Shown here: positions 9,133-64,000 of the stretch, piece after piece | Numbering within the stretch: position 1 is the first letter of the stretch | How the letters are laid out: every line of letters starts with the position of its first letter | Sequence record: OQ555404.1 | Direction: 5' to 3' (one strand) | Length of the DNA: 64,000 bases | DNA from: Escherichia phage vB_EcoP_HC-25922 | Made by a program: the position numbers and the translations under genes | Notes under the pieces: generated by a model | The model's database searches: none | What the model saw: the letters and a program-made list of their open reading frames with translations, nothing else | What the model was told of the DNA's origin: nothing

Positions 9133-9624
9133 ATGGACGCTATCGCATTGCCGCCTGTACAGATGAGCCTAAGTCCGGCTGGTATGGAGTTTATTATGAA
9201 ACATGAAGGCATGAGAACTAAAGCCTATAAAGACTCCGCTGGAATCTGGACTATATGTGTAGGGGCTACGCGCGATATGAATGGGTATCCAGTAAGACAA
9301 GGATTAACGTATTCTATAGAGGATTGTCTAGCTCTGCTAGATAGAGACACACAAGACTCTGTTCGTGCTACTCAGAAAAACATAAGAGTTCCTATGCTAG
9401 CTCATGAATTTGATGCTGTCACTTCTTTCAACTTTAATGTTGGTGGTGGTGCTTTGTCAGCTTCAAAACTTAGGAAAGTGATCAACGGAGATGTGAAGGG
9501 TGATGTTTACTCAGAGTTCTTACGTTGGGATAAGATAACTGTTAAAGGTGTAAAGCAGCGGAGTCCGGGACTTCACAATCGCAGGGTTGCAGAAGCAAAT
9601 CTATACACTACAGGAAAATATTAA
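9133..9624 (+). CDS. lysozyme (T4 e-type, GH24)
   Basis: HEGMRTKAYKDSAGIWTICVGAT reproduces the Glu-x8-Asp-x5-Thr catalytic spacing of T4 lysozyme. Confidence 0.8.
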   Translation: MDAIALPPVQMSLSPAGMEFIMKHEGMRTKAYKDSAGIWTICVGATRDMNGYPVRQGLTYSIEDCLALLDRDTQDSVRATQKNIRVPMLAHEFDAVTSFNFNVGGGALSASKLRKVINGDVKGDVYSEFLRWDKITVKGVKQRSPGLHNRRVAEANLYTTGKY

Positions 9625-56187: not shown

Positions 56188-56296
56188 ACAACCTCTTCTT
56201 TGAACTTAAAAAAGGACTCTCCTAAGAGAGCCAAGCTTTAAGGCCAATTAAATAGATATCACCCAATATCTGTGGATAACCTGCTCTTAAAATATT

Positions 56297-59626: not shown

Positions 59627-59653
59627 TGGTGGACTATCTGGAATCGAACCAGA
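59627..59653 (-). other. tRNA 3'-half-like fragment (T-arm plus acceptor 3' strand)
   Basis: minus-strand TCTGG-TTCGATT-CCAGA T-arm followed by TAGTCCACCA; no complementary 5' acceptor strand found. Confidence 0.3.
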
Positions 59654-59752
59654 AGCTCACTAAGAAAGCAATTCCCACTGTTATAAAAGCACTTGCCTCA
59701 ACAGGGATACACTAACTCTGGTGCCGTACCCATACTAGCCCTTGTTTAAAAT

Positions 59753-59780
59753 TGGTCGGGACGGAAGGATTCGAACCCTC
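59753..59780 (-). other. tRNA 3'-half-like fragment ending in CCA
   Basis: minus-strand GAGGG-TTCGAAT-CCTTC T-arm followed by CGTCCCG-A-CCA; no room for a full tRNA. Confidence 0.3.
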
Positions 59781-59804
59781 CTACGTTGATTTAAAAGCTC
59801 TTAG

Positions 59805-59883
<79 letters not shown>

Positions 59884-59906
59884 ATTAAGAGCTTTCAATA
59901 TTTTGT

Positions 59907-60116
59907 TTAACTGAAAATACGCAAGGCCACATCATGACCGATATGACCGGGAACTTTGTGCTGCTCTATTTTCAAACAGAGTTTACAAACACGAGACACA
60001 CGAGACTCTTTCGCTTCGACTGGAGTGTCTTTAGCGTGAGTGATGTGTAGGTTTTCAGTGATCACCCACTCGTGTTTACATCCAGAATCTTCGGGCTTTT
60101 TCTTACGAAAGAACAT
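59907..60116 (-). CDS. small Cys/His protein, tandem paralog 1
   Basis: CKHEW...RVCKLC; start set at internal MFFRKKK. Confidence 0.35.
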   Translation of the reverse strand: MFFRKKKPEDSGCKHEWVITENLHITHAKDTPVEAKESRVSRVCKLCLKIEQHKVPGHIGHDVALRIFS

Positions 60117-60124
60117 AACACCTC

Positions 60125-60289
60125 TTAGATCAGATCTGTTTTCTTGTGCAGACCACACACTTTACAGCGAGAGTAGATACGCAACCCTTGTCGCTCTCTG
60201 TCAGTAAGTTTATTTGTGATCGTCAGTTCATAAGTATGAAGATCTTCCCACTCATGGAAATGAAAGAAACGTTTGAACCATTTAATCAT
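60125..60289 (-). CDS. small Cys/His protein, tandem paralog 2 (54 aa, below ORF-track cutoff)
   Basis: MIKWFKRFFHFHEWEDL...RCKVCGLHKKTDLI read from the minus strand. Confidence 0.35.
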   Translation of the reverse strand: MIKWFKRFFHFHEWEDLHTYELTITNKLTDRERQGLRIYSRCKVCGLHKKTDLI

Positions 60290-60298
60290 AATGATTCC

Positions 60299-60460
60299 TT
60301 AGATTACATCACGATGACTAACATCACCACACACCTTACACTGAATAACGTAACGTGTGCCCTTGTCATTGTTCCCATCTGAATCTGTATAGACCAGAGG
60401 ACGGGTGTTAATAATCTTCCAATCATGACAATGGAAGACACGCTTTAGCCATTTAATCAT
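60299..60460 (-). CDS. small Cys/His protein, tandem paralog 3
   Basis: MIKWLKRVFHCHDWKII...QCKVCGDVSHRDVI; start set at internal MIKW. Confidence 0.35.
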   Translation of the reverse strand: MIKWLKRVFHCHDWKIINTRPLVYTDSDGNNDKGTRYVIQCKVCGDVSHRDVI

Positions 60461-60461
60461 A

Positions 60462-60719
60462 CTAAGCACACGCCGGTAATTCAATTAACTGAGGAGTACG
60501 ACAAGGGCCATCCTCATACACACCTACTAGTGTTGGCATGTAAGGCCCAGCGCACTGGTATTCATCGAACAGTTCATTGTAAGTAGGCTTCCACTTCCAA
60601 GCCCACACATAACCCATTCGATCAATGGCAATGTAACGAGTGTTCAGAGGAACCTGCATCATCACATCACCAACTGCTATTACTTTCGTAATAACTACTG
60701 CTCGGAAGTTTGTCTTCAT
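60462..60719 (-). CDS. hypothetical small protein
   Basis: 85 aa ORF. Confidence 0.35.
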   Translation of the reverse strand: MKTNFRAVVITKVIAVGDVMMQVPLNTRYIAIDRMGYVWAWKWKPTYNELFDEYQCAGPYMPTLVGVYEDGPCRTPQLIELPACA

Positions 60720-61024
60720 GACTTTGCAGCCTCCATCATTTTATTCATTTTAGCCACACCTTTACGGATAAGAGGCATAAATTCATCAGCCAGTTCAGTG
60801 GATAAAAGTTTAAGCCCGCCTGATTTAATACCGTTCACCGCCTTCTCAACTTCATCCGACAGCAATGTCATTGTTAACCACGGGGATTTTATTACCACAG
60901 TAAAGCCCGGTTCATACCGCGAGTGACTGTAGGTGAACTCTAAATGAGTAACACCGGGCATCTTAGACATTTGAGCACGGATATCTACATTAGGGTTGCA
61001 GCGAGTTGAAGATGAAATTGTCAT
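60716..61024 (-). CDS. hypothetical protein
   Basis: 102 aa ORF. Confidence 0.4.
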   Translation of the reverse strand: MTISSSTRCNPNVDIRAQMSKMPGVTHLEFTYSHSRYEPGFTVVIKSPWLTMTLLSDEVEKAVNGIKSGGLKLLSTELADEFMPLIRKGVAKMNKMMEAAKS

Positions 61025-61272
61025 GGCGCTTTAATCTCAATCTGAACGTTGACGACGAATACAGTATGGTTTGCACTGTACACTGAAGTGCCTATGATTG
61101 GCTTATCATCACTGAGGATTTCAACAGCGTGCTCAAGGTTAATCTTCAGATGAAGACGCCCTGATTCCATGAAGAAATCACCAGCACGTATCTCACCGAA
61201 CTTAGCTGGCACACCGATAGAGGGTATCAGTATGTCAGTGCGACCTTTACGGTCAAATAAACGATTGAACAT
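61021..61272 (-). CDS. small protein, GD.F-family paralog
   Basis: FGEIRAGDFFME...RLHLKIN. Confidence 0.35.
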   Translation of the reverse strand: MFNRLFDRKGRTDILIPSIGVPAKFGEIRAGDFFMESGRLHLKINLEHAVEILSDDKPIIGTSVYSANHTVFVVNVQIEIKAP

Positions 61273-61281
61273 ATCAACCCC

Positions 61282-61491
61282 TTATGTAATATCAACCTCA
61301 AACCAACAGGTAAGAGCTTTTTCATTGTTGCGTTTTGGCTCAAAGGATTTAACAACCGATAATACTCGGCGCTGTTCTCCATCAAACCAGATAGTTTCAT
61401 CTTTTTCAGGGAGTAGGTTGTGTGCAGCACAAACGATTTCACCTAGCACAACCTGTCTGCCATCTTGCTTACGAACTAAACGAATGTTCAT
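61282..61491 (-). CDS. hypothetical small protein
   Basis: start set at MNIRLVRK with AGAGAGG RBS after the terminator. Confidence 0.35.
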   Translation of the reverse strand: MNIRLVRKQDGRQVVLGEIVCAAHNLLPEKDETIWFDGEQRRVLSVVKSFEPKRNNEKALTCWFEVDIT

Positions 61492-61534
61492 AACAACCTC
61501 TCTTGTTAGTTTAAGTAAGAGTTGTCCCTTAATT

Positions 61535-61567
61535 AAAACAACAAAGGCCACCCCTAAGGGCAGCCTC
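61535..61567 (-). terminator. rho-independent terminator (minus strand)
   Basis: minus-strand GGCTGCCC-TTAG-GGGTGGCC followed by TTTGTTGTTTT. Confidence 0.5.
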
Positions 61568-61571
61568 TTAT

Positions 61572-61775
61572 TTAAGCGCAAGCACTACGCAGTTTGTTAT
61601 TCAAGAAGCGATCTTCTGCATTATACAGGAATGCATAGAACAACTCTTTTGCTACATCCCGATCGCAATTGAGACATTTAGAGATCTGTAACAACAAACC
61701 ATCACGACTATTAGGATGGTCAATTATCGCAAGACGAATAATCTCACGAATACCAATGTCATGCTCAGCCGCCAT
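61572..61775 (-). CDS. hypothetical small protein
   Basis: ORF 61572-61787 taken from its internal ATG (MAAEHD). Confidence 0.3.
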   Translation of the reverse strand: MAAEHDIGIREIIRLAIIDHPNSRDGLLLQISKCLNCDRDVAKELFYAFLYNAEDRFLNNKLRSACA

Positions 61776-61905
61776 AGAACCAATCACCCTGACGTTTACG
61801 AATGTTAGTTGTCAGACGAAGCATGGCAGACTCAATCTTCAGAGCACCATTTGCTACTGCATCCATACGTTCAGGACGGTTCATACGTTTGGTTGTCTTT
61901 TTCAT
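61765..61905 (-). CDS. small basic protein (46 aa, below ORF-track cutoff)
   Basis: MKKTTKRMNRPERMDAVANGALKIESAMLRLTTNIRKRQGDWFYGG. Confidence 0.3.
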   Translation of the reverse strand: MKKTTKRMNRPERMDAVANGALKIESAMLRLTTNIRKRQGDWFYGG

Positions 61906-62085
61906 AATGTTCTCTCTTTATTGATGGAGGCAGGATTGCCAGTTAATATAAAGGGAAGCCCTACACGTCAAGGCTTCCGCTTGTACAAACTGTCGAGAAC
62001 TCTCTACCCCTAGATTGTTCTCTATCCCAAACCGATACATACCCCTACATATCGGAATGCCATTCGAAAATTAACAGGTTTTAGT

Positions 62086-62212
62086 CTATCACCGGATGTT
62101 TGAGACAAGTCTCTCCCTAGCGGTGAGCCATATGGCGTTGAGATTATAGTTAATTGAGGAACATCCTCACATAGCCCTCTGATAAACACAAGAGCTATAA
62201 GTCGATGTTACT
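62086..62212 (-). repeat. conserved noncoding element, copy B
   Basis: second copy of the element at 56297-56433, same orientation, again abutting the stop of a GD.F-family gene. Confidence 0.5.
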
Positions 62213-62432
62213 TGTTGGTTAGTCGTGCGTTAGGTACAGGTCTGACTACAGTCGATTTACACTCAGAATCACGCTTACCTGTATAAAGGTTAACAAAATA
62301 ACTTTTGTTTTCACCATAACACGCAGTACGCATGTAGTATTGAGTTTCATTGTAGTTAAACTGGAAGACTTCACCCGGATTTAGGTCTCCGAGAGTTACA
62401 ACCTCTGGCGTACTATCAATGTCAATCTTCAT
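62208..62432 (-). CDS. small protein, GD.F-family paralog
   Basis: VTLGDLNPGEVFQF...QYYMRTA. Confidence 0.4.
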   Translation of the reverse strand: MKIDIDSTPEVVTLGDLNPGEVFQFNYNETQYYMRTACYGENKSYFVNLYTGKRDSECKSTVVRPVPNARLTNK

Positions 62433-62663
62433 TTAACCACCAATATTAGTCACTTGAACATCAAATACAGGGATAACTTCATGATGTTCCTGTAACTGGA
62501 ATAGTGTTCCCTGACGAAGACCAACCACACGATGCATATCATTCAGGCAGGTGTCTGTCTTTAGATAGAGGTGTTCAGAGTTAGTTGGTAGACGGAATAC
62601 GTCACCCGGACGTAGATCGCTGAGCTTTTTAGTAACAACTAAAGATGGGAGATTAATTTTCAT
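62433..62663 (-). CDS. small protein, GD.F-family paralog
   Basis: KLSDLRPGDVFRL...HLYLKTD. Confidence 0.4.
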   Translation of the reverse strand: MKINLPSLVVTKKLSDLRPGDVFRLPTNSEHLYLKTDTCLNDMHRVVGLRQGTLFQLQEHHEVIPVFDVQVTNIGG

Positions 62664-62854
62664 TTGATTAACACCAAATCAGTACGACGTTCGAAGGAAG
62701 GGGAGGATTCACCATTCCACTGAACAAGATAACAGAGAACACCATCAATCGTTGTTCTCCGACGAATAACACCTGTAACAGTTCCACCAACAAGGCGAAC
62801 GGTGTCGCCAACGGTAAATTTAACCTTTGAGCGCATCTCCCGTTTCCTCATTCT
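62660..62854 (-). CDS. hypothetical small protein
   Basis: C-terminal part of ORF 62660-62989 from an internal Met (KFTVGDTVRLVGG...). Confidence 0.3.
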   Translation of the reverse strand, partial: RMRKREMRSKVKFTVGDTVRLVGGTVTGVIRRRTTIDGVLCYLVQWNGESSPSFERRTDLVLIK

Positions 62855-63125
62855 GGCGTTTAATTTCTTCAGTGAGTTGCTTATTAAGATCTTGAATACG
62901 TTTAATCTCCCAACCCAAAGAAGCCAAACGATCGTTACGTGCTTCGATTTGTTCCTGCATTTTAAGTAATTTGGAACGAACATCAGCATTAAAAACTTCT
63001 TCTTGCTTAAGAAGGAACTCGTAACGACGCTTCCAGCTTGCTGATTTGTTTCTTAAAATAATAAATCCTAGAGTAGAAACAGTTACAGTGAGTACGAAAA
63101 GGAACTTATAAACCTCTAAAGACAT
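62820..63125 (-). CDS. membrane-anchored coiled-coil protein
   Basis: N-terminal transmembrane segment FLFVLTVTVSTLGFIIL then helical region. Confidence 0.4.
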   Translation of the reverse strand: MSLEVYKFLFVLTVTVSTLGFIILRNKSASWKRRYEFLLKQEEVFNADVRSKLLKMQEQIEARNDRLASLGWEIKRIQDLNKQLTEEIKRQNEETGDALKG

Positions 63126-63326
63126 ATCTTTATCCTCTTAAAGTAAGATATTATAAGAAATATTATTTAGAATTTATTATTTCTAAACTTAATTCCTATC
63201 AATAATTTTCAGAGGTCTATATACAGTCATTACCTCTGGTCCCAAATCACTTCCACTTTTTACAGAGAAAATCATAAGTGTGTGATTTATAAGGAAATTT
63301 AGTTTGTCAATATTGGCACTTATGAA

Positions 63327-63713
63327 TCAGTCACGGGAGCTATTATTGAACACTAAATCACCACAATACATCGGATTGGTATACCACTTTGGCACCCCTT
63401 CGCTCTTACTCTGAAAGTATGTACCGCTGTACAAAGGCACATAACCTTTCTTCAGTGCACGCCTTGCAAGCCGCTCGCTCTCTCTGATTGATTTCTTTAT
63501 CAGAGGGTTATCATCACGAATTAGCTTTACATAACGCTTAAAAGGTTTCTCCTTCTTTAATAGGACGGGTATCCACTCGAACTGGTTTCGTTGATTTATA
63601 ACCTGCTCGGCAGTCAGTTTTCGTTGTGACATTCTGTTTATTACGGTATCCGCTACTAATGCTTTGCAAGCGGTTGGCTGATTCCCTGCCTCATAATAAA
63701 TAGTCAATGTCAA
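63327..63713 (-). CDS. SleB-like cell wall hydrolase domain protein
   Basis: IYYEAG.QP..CKALVADTVINR...QFEW and C-terminal YF....P.WYTNP...GDLVF parallel SleB-type hydrolase motifs; start is non-ATG (TTG) and uncertain. Confidence 0.45.
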   Translation of the reverse strand: MTLTIYYEAGNQPTACKALVADTVINRMSQRKLTAEQVINQRNQFEWIPVLLKKEKPFKRYVKLIRDDNPLIKKSIRESERLARRALKKGYVPLYSGTYFQSKSEGVPKWYTNPMYCGDLVFNNSSRD

Positions 63714-63763
63714 AAGTAGCTGGGCTGTCGTTATCAGAACTTACTACCCCCTTGTTTTACGGG

Positions 63764-63791
63764 CATAAAAAAGCCCCATCCGAAGACGGGG
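63764..63791 (-). terminator. rho-independent terminator (minus strand)
   Basis: minus-strand CCCCGTC-TTCG-GATGGGG followed by CTTTTTTAT. Confidence 0.6.
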
Positions 63792-63845
63792 CGGCCTGAA
63801 AAGTGAACATGACTTCACTCATTTAAGAATCCTCGTAAAGACTCT

Positions 63846-63870
63846 TAAAAAAGAGGCCTCGTTAAAGGCC
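63846..63870 (-). terminator. rho-independent terminator (minus strand)
   Basis: minus-strand GGCCT-TTAACG-AGGCC followed by TCTTTTTT. Confidence 0.5.
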
Positions 63871-63950
63871 CGGTCAAATGACCATCCAATAGGGATTGAA
63901 CCATGCCAATGATTCACAAAGGGAGTTCCCTTTAGGCATCACTAGCTACG

Positions 63951-63972
63951 AAAAAAGCCGCACAAAGGCGGC
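63951..63972 (-). terminator. rho-independent terminator (minus strand)
   Basis: minus-strand GCCGC-CTTTGT-GCGGC followed by TTTTTT. Confidence 0.55.
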
Positions 63973-64000
63973 AGACAAAGACGCTCAAGAAGAGCGTCAT

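Follow-up and report, generated by a model that had tools for sequence, protein, structure and literature searches.

A SleB-like gene behind a cluster of predicted intrinsic terminators in the early region of phiEco32-type coliphages

The Bacillus enzyme SleB acts on the muramic-delta-lactam cortex of spores, carries a signal peptide and an N-terminal peptidoglycan-binding domain, and has a partner protein, YpeB, whilst its paralogue CwlJ is a single-domain protein. Small proteins of the Hydrolase_2 type are also encoded by phages with Gram-negative hosts, amongst them the T5-like phage AKFV33 (ORF81), Phapecoctavirus, LNA4 and Erwinia phage Y2, where the protein is the endolysin. In AKFV33, Phapecoctavirus and LNA4 the Hydrolase_2 protein is additional to a regular endolysin (PMC3326045; PMC10793346; PMC12031403) and in AKFV33 ORF81 lies in the early region (PMC3326045). 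No characterisation of the SleB-domain proteins of other phages was found in the literature searched. A further relative, the type VI secretion effector T6EC3, has a SleB fold, is toxic in the E. coli periplasm and needs the aligned catalytic glutamate for this effect (PMC11148199), which shows that a protein with the SleB fold is able to damage the walls of Gram-negative cells.

Intrinsic terminators are textbook elements, and those found between the genes of lytic phages such as T4 are co-oriented, with GC-rich stems, UUCG or UACG tetraloops and U-tracts. Hairpins with conserved loops and variable stems upstream of early-operon terminators are known from the nut antitermination sites of lambda, which comprise boxA (a conserved sequence element) followed by the boxB hairpin, the latter bound by an N-type protein, and from HK022 put RNA. 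More generally, hairpins occur widely between the genes of phages and may make mRNA more stable, according to PMC8948821, which cites Tuerk et al. 1988.

Both kinds of element meet at one locus in the 64-kb stretch of DNA analysed here (the window), which belongs to a phiEco32-type (Kuravirus/Suseptimavirus-like) coliphage with E. coli as its host. Phage MLP3 shares 98.7% identity with the window, and 98 related phage records match it. Annotated relatives share the order 147-aa gene, spacer, SleB-like gene, and the same order, with a long hairpin-rich spacer, is found in distant contigs whose proteins are 46-70% identical. The spacer is ~300 nt long; the upstream 147-aa gene, annotated in MLP3, ends just past the window edge, its stop lying ~30 nt before the first hairpin, H1 (Table 1). 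In phiEco32 the locus lies at 69.6 kb of 77.5 kb, inside the genome and so not at one of its ends. The homologues of the window gene are phi32_117 in phiEco32 and gp116 in SU10, the latter labelled SleB-domain-containing in UniProt. Published work places the SleB-like gene in the early cluster and puts three sigma-70 promoters ahead of the phi32_124 homologue (PMC4281155, text and Table S2). In MLP3 we located these at 9155-9479 of its locus sequence (L001); the strong promoters of the upstream operon thus lie ~3 kb upstream of the terminators, outside the window. Another strong terminator follows the first early gene (MLP3 L001 7287-7260). The spacer separates the first early transcription unit from the remaining leftward early gene cluster, and is of practical use as a transcriptional boundary in phages studied for therapy.

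Table 1 Features of the spacer and the SleB-like gene, in order from H1 to the gene (positions are those of the 64-kb window)
Feature	Position	Strand	Description
H1	63980..63998	-	GACGCUC-UUCUU-GAGCGUC; -12.5 kcal/mol, z = -5.8
T2, putative terminator	63950..63972 (hairpin 63972-63957)	-	GCCGC-CUUUGU-GCGGC then U6; -9.1 kcal/mol
P1/P2 region	63898..63946	-	Inner stem AAAGGG-AACU-CCCUUU (63918-63933); -20.6 kcal/mol, z = -3.75
T3, putative terminator	63846..63871 (hairpin 63871-63854)	-	GGGCCUU-UAAC-GAGGCCU then CUUUUUUA; -10.1 kcal/mol
LH	63822..63849	-	UNCG-type tetraloop, UACG in the window; -9.8 kcal/mol, z = -4.0
P3	63801..63820	-	7-bp stem, invariant loop GUCAUG; followed by UUUCAGG, then T4
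T4, putative terminator	63765..63792 (hairpin 63792-63773)	-	GCCCCGTC-UUCG-GAUGGGGC then U6; -16.2 kcal/mol, z = -4.2
Shine-Dalgarno	63747..63753	-	AAGGGGG, read from the sequence; 9 nt upstream of CTG 63737
SleB/CwlJ-type (Hydrolase_2) single-domain gene	63327..63737	-	Proposed 136 aa; CTG 63737-63735 to TGA 63329-63327
Earlier ORF, nested in the longer frame	63327..63713	-	TTG start, 128 aa

A sequence-only reading of this DNA had described three tandem terminators within 210 nt on the same strand as the gene, and this we can confirm at 63773-63972. T2, T3 and T4 pass two terminator scans, all lie after the stop of the 147-aa gene, and T4 is the strongest of the three. When both strands of the 64-kb window were scanned more strictly, 13 sites were returned, three of them in one 200-nt stretch and the others all isolated. 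The cluster is far beyond chance and is the only one of its kind in the window. No kuravirus locus with its spacer read lacks T2 or T4. One pair of the T4 stem is U-A, G-C or C-G depending on the lineage, a compensatory pattern, whilst the T2 stem shows no variation among the kuraviruses examined and hence says nothing about pairing. T3 is clade-specific: it occurs in only 21 of the 98 related records, is absent from 4E8, XT18 and phiEco32, and forms with the flanking P1/P2 hairpins a variable module of ~110 nt that is missing in 77 of the 98. Judged by structure and position, T2, T3 and T4 would be canonical intrinsic terminators.

Between and around the terminators the spacer is almost all hairpin, its 263 nt folding at -110.3 kcal/mol (z = -8.0). 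The core of T2, LH, P3 and T4 is found in all but one of the kuravirus relatives with the spacer read. H1, itself a conserved hairpin, was flagged as a fourth terminator site, but its tail is weak and relatives have no T-run there (the tail is GTGCC in phiEco32 and XT18), and it was rejected as a conserved terminator. The P1/P2 region has two possible folds, a single long hairpin (63905-63946) and one that includes a further hairpin, GAAUCAU-UGGC-AUGGUUC (63898-63915); it aligns with the spacer of a distant contig (L088) whose protein is 70% identical, and the differences in the stems are paired changes. No repeats of the spacer elements were found elsewhere in the 64-kb window.

The pairing of LH and P3 is supported by covariation. 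Because MAFFT, when run on the whole LH-P3-T4 segment, shifted P3 by one base, the two hairpins were counted on separate short alignments. Across clades, and with only three or four independent lineages contributing, both sides change at 4 of the 12 LH pairs and at all 7 pairs of the P3 stem; 98.5% of LH cells and 95.8% of P3 cells pair, compared with 36-60% and 33-54%, respectively, in slid controls. The loops behave differently. That of LH is mostly UGCG or UUCG in relatives (UGAG in Bas88 and in contig L094), and its conservation is explained by UNCG-tetraloop stability alone; TTTRCGAG, considered as a recognition motif, was rejected on the same grounds and because it is not enriched. P3 is the single such hairpin in the window, and in 1.46 Mb of loci its strong-stemmed copies occur at this locus, always just upstream of T4, the remaining hits to the pattern being few, with G·T-rich stems elsewhere in kuravirus loci and in one unrelated contig. 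Its invariant GUCAUG loop is left unaccounted for by a pure terminator and stability role. Set beside the intergenic hairpins of lytic phages, the kuravirus spacer has the same GC-rich stems, UUCG/UACG tetraloops, U-tracts and shared orientation, but it packs three terminators and at least four other hairpins into ~260 nt, and P3 has an invariant loop that is not of the UNCG kind.

The explanation that we favour, and consider on balance a probable one, is a boundary of serial terminators and stability hairpins, followed by a weakly expressed accessory enzyme resembling a lytic transglycosylase. Most transcripts from the strong early sigma-70 promoters would stop at T2-T4, the stable hairpins would protect the 3' ends of these early transcripts, and read-through by RNA polymerase would be the sole route to the hydrolase gene. 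Downstream of the terminators lie ~48 early genes, all classed as early by phiEco32 macroarrays according to PMC8948821. Were three serial terminators efficient, the transcription of these genes would be hard to explain: either T2-T4 would have to be leaky or overridden, or an unrecognised promoter would have to lie downstream.

A rival explanation is regulated read-through, which we regard as unlikely. Here the hairpins, mainly P3 and H1, would be cis-acting RNA signals bound by a phage or host factor that lets RNA polymerase pass T2-T4, gating the switch from immediate-early to delayed-early transcription. A loop that stays invariant whilst every stem pair covaries is typical of hairpins recognised by proteins, and P3 is placed always just upstream of a terminator; many downstream early genes have no recognisable promoter, another strong terminator follows the first early gene, and the authors of the phage 7-11 study also propose an undefined antitermination mechanism (PMC8948821). 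This reading names no antiterminator protein, however, and no copy of P3 was seen beside the other early terminator. The covariation, moreover, comes from few lineages and the LH loop needs no binding partner to explain its conservation. The likeness to lambda nut and HK022 put, conserved loops on variable stems upstream of early-operon terminators, is a resemblance drawn from the sequence alone. P3 differs from boxB in having a 6-nt loop, and the CGCUCUU of H1 is an incomplete match to boxA and not statistically notable: the window has 12 copies of CGCTCTT, most of them within genes, with 6 expected, and a boxA reading was rejected as not specific to the H1 site. In a broader form, the hairpin array, with P3 before T4 as its key element, would be an RNA switch over passage through the terminators, both gating the early transition and metering the CUG-initiated enzyme. 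We judge this decidedly unlikely; if true, it would be antitermination or attenuation of a kind not yet described for Kuravirus phages.

The sequence-only reading had proposed instead that a number of very short transcripts or small RNAs end here. Independent transcripts between the terminators, each with its own terminator, would suit the presence of three terminators within 210 nt with a structured segment before each, as well as the retention of P1/P2 even in the distant contig L088. The proposal does not fare well, however, and we find it very doubtful. A simple consensus scan of 62000-64000, which could miss real promoters, returned no sigma-70-like promoter on either strand, where 4.4 would be expected by chance, and a consensus-only scan of the spacer region gave no match to the phage sigma consensus TAATGTATA, TCATGT(T/A) in P3 agreeing with it at only 6-7 of 9 positions. 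TTTACG...GTCAT was considered as a -35/-10 pair and rejected, since clades differ by 2 nt in the distance from the LH loop to the P3 loop and the candidate -10 lacks the key A. Separate small RNAs are thus unsupported, there being no promoter-like site between the terminators. The pieces between the terminators are stem-loops, they match no Rfam family, and the P1/P2-T3 module is absent from most relatives. It is simpler to read the set as serial back-up terminators and stabilising hairpins that close the upstream early operon.

Other products of the spacer were also looked for. A T-loop-like string without a foldable tRNA had been remarked on, and this description is accurate: GGTTCAATCCC lies at 63892-63902 on the minus strand, ARAGORN found no tRNA genes in the window, and an Rfam search of 60000-64000 that included tRNA and tmRNA yielded nothing significant, all hits being far below thresholds. 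A tRNA remnant around the GTTCAATCC loop was rejected, as the flanks form no T-stem and neither program gave a match; what the string overlaps is the 3' arm of hairpin P2, which L088 retains with compensatory changes. Short reading frames within the spacer (a 32-aa ORF, Bas88_0109, Bas88_0110 and a plus-strand 37-aa ORF in MLP3) were likewise rejected, because the U-tracts that they span vary by 1 nt among relatives (SU7, for example), breaking the frames.

It is also highly improbable that the hairpins work at the level of DNA instead of RNA, whether as a replication origin, a hot spot of recombination or a site for protein binding. The spacer is rich in insertions and deletions, different genes have been inserted after T4 in different relatives, and the opposite strand also folds well (z = -6.3). 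Against this, in every relative it is the transcribed strand that carries all of the U-tracts and the asymmetric GUCAUG loop, and the stems contain frequent G·U pairs, which are valid only in transcribed-strand RNA. The accessory genes found directly after T4 encode, according to the relative, a YadA-anchor/collagen protein, an HTH_37 protein, a 136-aa ORF or a small lipoprotein-like ORF, and the spacer is an insertion/deletion hot spot at which relatives gained such genes.

The gene beyond T4 had been read as a 128-aa minus-strand ORF with a non-ATG start and no clear ribosome-binding site. That ORF is present, and no Shine-Dalgarno sequence could be read before its TTG (63713), but for the gene itself the second point does not stand, as a CTG in the same frame at 63737 is preceded by AAGGGGG. 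The true start is probably this CTG, giving 136 aa rather than 128, because of the strong Shine-Dalgarno sequence 9 nt upstream and because distant homologues have ATG or TTG at the same codon. The Shine-Dalgarno sequence is kept in all kuravirus loci (as a GGAGGT version in most relatives), and in-frame TAG and TAA stops at 63746-63741 close the reading frame directly upstream. CTG is found in 17 of 17 E. coli kuravirus loci with the start read, whilst the distant homologues in L088, L090 and L092 have a Shine-Dalgarno sequence before their ATG or TTG. Residues TTA-LL at the N terminus are conserved, and 5 of the 6 variable sites in the first eight codons are third-codon positions. A 10-codon upstream ORF overlapping the CTG was rejected, neither its frame nor its ATG being conserved. 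Existing annotation is uneven: GenBank gene models come in four lengths (101, 128, 129 and 136 aa), the phiEco32 clade has an ATG, the annotated start, at the codon before TTG where the window has CTT (63716-63714), and Bas88 is already annotated in the 136-aa form. In the 101-aa models of MLP3 and SU7 the catalytic glutamate is cut off and the predicted fold is poor. The gene model should run for 136 aa from CTG. Initiation at CUG in E. coli proceeds at 1-2% of the AUG level (bioRxiv 10.1101/063800).

The assignment of the protein to the SleB-type family, made earlier from motifs, holds up well. PF07486 (Hydrolase_2) scores 31.4 bits with the 128-aa and 31.2 bits with the 136-aa form, above the gathering cut-off of 27 bits, and is matched by all 12 family members scanned; phrog_12974 matches with E = 1.9e-83. 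A search of the PDB with the single sequence gave no match and a family profile was therefore needed, which found the SleB structures 4F55 (E = 1.9e-11) and 4FET (E = 1.3e-10). The AlphaFold2 model (pLDDT 91.5) pointed the same way: the top three PDB matches in Foldseek are SleB catalytic domains (4FET and 4F55), with a probability of 1.0 and TM scores of 0.59-0.65 over the whole protein, whilst the remaining hits have E > 5. The catalytic domain begins at about residue 4, the N-terminal helix being helix 1 of that domain. Glutamate E16, where helix 1 ends, does not vary across 22 sequences with identities down to 28%; its counterpart in 4F55 and 4FET is the Glu of YGESRGEP, which we take to be the catalytic Glu151 of B. 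anthracis or Glu157 of B. cereus. That SleB requires a catalytic glutamate is borne out by PMC12331253. By these models, the phage protein has a SleB/CwlJ catalytic fold with an invariant glutamate.

Similarity to SleB has its limits. Although the fold is common to both, identity is only ~18%, and the EARGE and GHxF motifs of SleB are replaced by EAGNQ and GDLVF, so that enzyme activity could be altered. The phage protein has neither the signal peptide nor the N-terminal peptidoglycan-binding domain of SleB, and it is not a SleB orthologue by this standard; no other Pfam domain, cell-wall-binding domains included, was found in its 136 aa, which resembles CwlJ in being a catalytic domain alone. 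Whereas SleB acts on spore cortex, E. coli is Gram-negative and makes no such cortex, and the function of the phage protein must therefore differ from that of SleB. T6EC3, for its part, is delivered by a secretion system and has a periplasmic immunity protein, whereas the phage protein lacks a delivery signal, and none of its neighbouring genes was identified as immunity-like.

The sequence-only reading had also suggested that a peptidoglycan-acting enzyme is made outside the lysis genes, and gene positions in Bas88 support the location. Its holin and endolysin genes lie at 13.7-14.5 kb among tail genes and its spanin gene at 33 kb, with a virion transglycosylase beyond the holin-endolysin pair, whilst the SleB-like gene is at 67.2 kb in the early cluster. 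By these positions and PMC4281155, the gene is not that of a canonical lysis-cassette endolysin, which would be late and sit beside the holin or spanin. Nor does the protein look like a SAR or secreted endolysin, since no hydrophobic segment is long enough for a membrane anchor or signal, N-terminal or otherwise (maximum 19-residue Kyte-Doolittle mean 0.71); its pI is 9.8. The gene appears to be of a peptidoglycan-enzyme type, with the predicted fold, the invariant glutamate and a dN/dS of 0.08-0.13, indicating strong purifying selection, and it is intact in 116 phage records, amongst them distant matches in Salmonella, Proteus and Cronobacter phages. It is hardly credible, then, that the gene is a decaying remnant from which no protein is made: the lack of a canonical start codon and of a promoter, the position behind terminators, the four discordant gene models and the failure to detect the protein in the SU10 proteome might suggest this, but the selection, the intact reading frames, the invariant active-site residues, the confident structure model and the Shine-Dalgarno sequence conserved at the right distance from CTG all argue against it.

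Under the favoured explanation, translation from the CUG start would run at ~1-2% of the AUG level, and the enzyme would therefore be made in small amounts. The absence of SU10 gp116 from the 34 proteins detected by mass spectrometry, which include six other early proteins, agrees with low abundance, though as evidence this is weak. The protein would remain in the cytoplasm and reach peptidoglycan only once the holin breaches the membrane, whereupon it would act as an accessory lytic-transglycosylase-like enzyme beside the regular endolysin. A cytoplasmic enzyme made early lacks an obvious substrate until lysis, and its real role could thus be different.

Placed behind terminators and given a CUG start, the SleB-like gene looks deliberately throttled. 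As a whole the feature is real but mostly ordinary, and looks built for low expression. Both halves are of known kinds, SleB-domain proteins being common second cell-wall enzymes of phages. Structural matches to the phage model in BFVD are SleB-domain proteins of other phages, 16-26% identical and mostly longer (150-250 aa), with extra N-terminal segments. Compared with the genes for these, the combination of a CTG start with an array of terminators and hairpins is peculiar to the kuravirus locus.

Over its last 2 kb, the window shares 98.7% identity with Escherichia phage MLP3. These 2 kb match 98 phage records, which all come from podophages of E. coli or Shigella that belong to the phiEco32 group (named as Kuravirus, Suseptimavirus or Gordonclarkvirinae). 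In the annotated relatives MLP3, SU7, Bas88, 4E8, phiEco32 and XT18, all genes here lie on the minus strand and run leftward, and the early gene cluster of phiEco32-group phages includes this region (PMC8948821; PMC4281155). The sequence-only reading saw in it a SleB-like hydrolase gene behind three terminators at which separate small RNAs were thought to end. The observation holds except for the gene start and the meaning of a T-loop-like string. Of its interpretation, one half stands, the additional gene for a cell-wall enzyme, and the separate small RNAs are unsupported; the gene and the terminator/hairpin cluster both belong to known kinds.

The proposed 128 amino acid ORF (63327-63713, minus strand, TTG start) is confirmed, scoring 31.4 bits against PF07486 (Hydrolase_2, the SleB/CwlJ domain; Pfam gathering threshold 27) and matching PHROG 12974 from end to end. 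Whilst a single-sequence search without a profile gave no match to solved structures, a profile of 22 family members detected the SleB catalytic domains of B. cereus (4F55, E = 1.9e-11) and B. anthracis (4FET, E = 1.3e-10). AlphaFold2 gave a confident model (pLDDT 91.5), whose only significant PDB neighbours are these SleB domains (probability 1.0, TM 0.59-0.65, full-length alignment). Residues E16, A17, R35, Q52 and G126 are invariant across the family, and E16 aligns with the glutamate of the SleB motif YGESRGEP, which we take to be the catalytic Glu151/157. A catalytic glutamate is essential in SleB (PMC12331253; PMC11148199). Comparison with four relatives gives dN/dS values of 0.08-0.13.

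The protein (pI 9.8) is a bare domain in which hydropathy and Pfam analysis found no signal peptide, membrane segment or cell-wall-binding domain; typical bacterial family members, in contrast, carry N-terminal signal sequences. Action on Gram-negative peptidoglycan is plausible, since a type VI effector with the SleB fold is lethal to E. coli when acting in the periplasm, an effect that depends on its glutamate (PMC11148199). The SU10 homologue is not one of the 34 proteins that mass spectrometry detected in a crude phage preparation. According to the relatives’ annotation, the kuravirus holin and endolysin are encoded among the tail genes, and the virion transglycosylase and spanin elsewhere, so that the hydrolase gene, lying apart from the lysis genes as had been proposed, specifies a further enzyme. 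Phages of Cronobacter, Proteus and Salmonella have homologues with 30-34% identity; some of these phages, at least, are podophages with prolate heads. The homologue in Proteus phage 3H10_20 (Privateervirus) is annotated as a lytic transglycosylase, and the regular endolysin of this group is reported in the Privateer paper to be an endopeptidase encoded ~12 kb beyond the spanins. An exhaustive profile search returned 258 cluster representatives, many of them 120-145 amino acids long and beginning with the domain at residue 1.

Reading back from the TTG, the frame stays open until the in-frame stops TAG and TAA (63746-63741). A CTG (63737-63735) lies two codons past these, and AAGGGGG stands before it at 63753-63747. 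In each of the 17 E. coli kuravirus loci with a readable start, GGAGGT or GGGGGT is followed by 8-9 nt and CTG, and distant homologues in metagenomic phage contigs (46-70% protein identity) start MLTTAALLLTLTIY, the codon matching CTG 63737 being ATG in L090 and L092 and TTG in L088; a separate Shine-Dalgarno sequence precedes each of these starts. Among kuraviruses, five of the six variable sites in the first eight codons are third-codon positions. The Shine-Dalgarno sequence, conserved codon position and third-position variation together make CTG 63737 the most likely start, giving a product of 136 amino acids. CUG initiation in E. coli is ~1-2% of that from AUG (bioRxiv 10.1101/063800). The Bas88 record already uses the 136 amino acid model, other GenBank models having 101 (MLP3, SU7), 128 (4E8) or 129 amino acids (phiEco32, SU10, XT18). 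The 101 amino acid form lacks the catalytic glutamate, and its BFVD model matches our own structure model poorly (TM 0.28).

Hairpins and intrinsic terminators of the spacer between the upstream 147 amino acid gene and the hydrolase gene
Feature	Position	Strand	Transcription order	Followed by
H1 hairpin	63998-63980	minus	1	
T2 terminator	63972-63957	minus	2	U6
P1/P2 hairpin region	63946-63898	minus	3	
Small GGUC/GACC hairpin	between P1/P2 and T3	minus	4	
T3 terminator	63871-63854	minus	5	CUUUUUUA
LH hairpin	63849-63822	minus	6	
P3 hairpin	63820-63801	minus	7	UUUCAGG
T4 terminator	63792-63773	minus	8 (last)	U6, then Shine-Dalgarno sequence

The three successive terminators were recovered by a consensus scan as T2, T3 and T4, with H1 as a weaker site. 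A stricter scan of both strands of the whole 64-kb window gave 13 sites, three of them within one 200-nt stretch of the spacer and all others isolated; the cluster is real. The 263 nt 5' of the CTG have a folding energy of -110.3 kcal/mol (z = -8.0). A T-loop-like string without a tRNA had also been noticed: GGTTCAATCCC is indeed present at 63892-63902, ARAGORN detects no tRNA in the window and Rfam nothing near any threshold; the string overlaps the 3' arm of the P2 hairpin.

The whole spacer is found in only 21 of the 98 relatives; in the rest, the ~110 nt from P1/P2 to T3, which separate T2 from LH, are missing. P1/P2 is nevertheless found again in L088, a distant contig, where its stems carry paired changes, so it is no recent accident but a variable module. 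Every kuravirus locus in which the spacer was read has T2, LH, P3 and T4, with the exception of KBNP1711, where T2 and T4 are kept and ~150 nt of unrelated sequence replaces LH and P3. In P3, the loop GUCAUG is constant whilst each of the seven stem pairs differs between clades on both of its sides, with 95.8% of cells paired against 33-54% with the partner columns slid. In LH, both sides have changed in four of 12 pairs, and pairing holds in 98.5% of cells; a UNCG tetraloop (UACG, UGCG or UUCG) forms its loop in every clade except Bas88 and L094 (UGAG), so stability alone suffices to explain its conservation. One T4 pair is seen as U-A, G-C or C-G. Because only three or four lineages are involved and the segments were chosen by us, these pairing counts are supportive but short of conclusive. 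Across 1.46 Mb of fetched loci, well-paired GUCAUG-loop hairpins occur at the spacer locus, the remaining matches being G·T-rich stems on the other strand in kuravirus loci and one unrelated contig.

The point just 3' of T4 is an insertion hot spot. In phiEco32 it holds phi32_119 (L005 2628-3425), between T4 and the hydrolase gene, a 265 amino acid product labelled ‘tail protein’ with a signal-peptide-like N-terminus (MKAIVLSSILALSVMASPVFA). Its Pfam collagen repeats and YadA-like membrane anchor (E = 4.5e-19) make it look like a miniature trimeric autotransporter, not a tail part. Other inserts after T4 encode an HTH_37 (antitoxin-like) protein (L097), a 136 amino acid ORF with no family match (L099) and a 92 amino acid lipoprotein-like ORF (L090). 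Short ‘hypothetical protein’ genes annotated within the spacer, of 29 and 32 amino acids in Bas86-88 (window 63819-63917, minus strand) and 37 amino acids in MLP3 (63897-64000, plus strand), are probably not genes, as they cross terminator U-tracts that vary in length among relatives. Elsewhere, the tRNA-Arg (anticodon UCU) gene of SU7, Bas88 and 4E8 is absent from the window: its flanks align at about 59650-59900, with about 250 nt of other sequence in its place.

MLP3 has three near-consensus sigma-70 promoters (L001 9155-9479) that match the listed early promoters of SU10. From these, transcription crosses a 300 amino acid gene and a strong terminator (L001 7287-7260), then four small genes, before it comes to the spacer. 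That terminator, with a 12-bp stem directly 3' of the first early gene, lies ~1.3 kb upstream of the T2-T4 cluster, implying that the early operon is broken by terminators more than once. A consensus scan of 62000-64000, which takes in the stretches separating the terminators, found no promoter-like site, leaving separate small RNAs without support. With strong promoters upstream and none apparent locally, T2-T4 and the hairpins would act as serial terminators and 3'-stabilising hairpins closing the first early unit, and the hydrolase gene would be transcribed by read-through only. How transcription would then get to the many early genes further along is a problem also met by the authors of work on phage 7-11, who suggested antitermination (PMC8948821).

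Two conserved non-coding blocks lie on the minus strand in the 200-nt spacer 3' of the hydrolase gene. The first (63287-63310) reads TTGACAAACTAAATT(T/C)CCTTATAAA, its core retained even in L088. The second (63210-63239) forms the hairpin CAGAGGT-AATGACTGTATATAG-ACCTCTG; in its loop, the sequence is similar to the phage sigma promoter consensus TAATGTATA split in two, and the equivalent place in L088 has TAATGTAT. This could be the promoter from which transcription resumes beyond the terminators. Finally, an isolated terminator-like hairpin, GGCTCTC-TTAG-GAGAGTC (56215-56232, minus strand), has a tail, CTTTTTTAAG, identical to that of T3.
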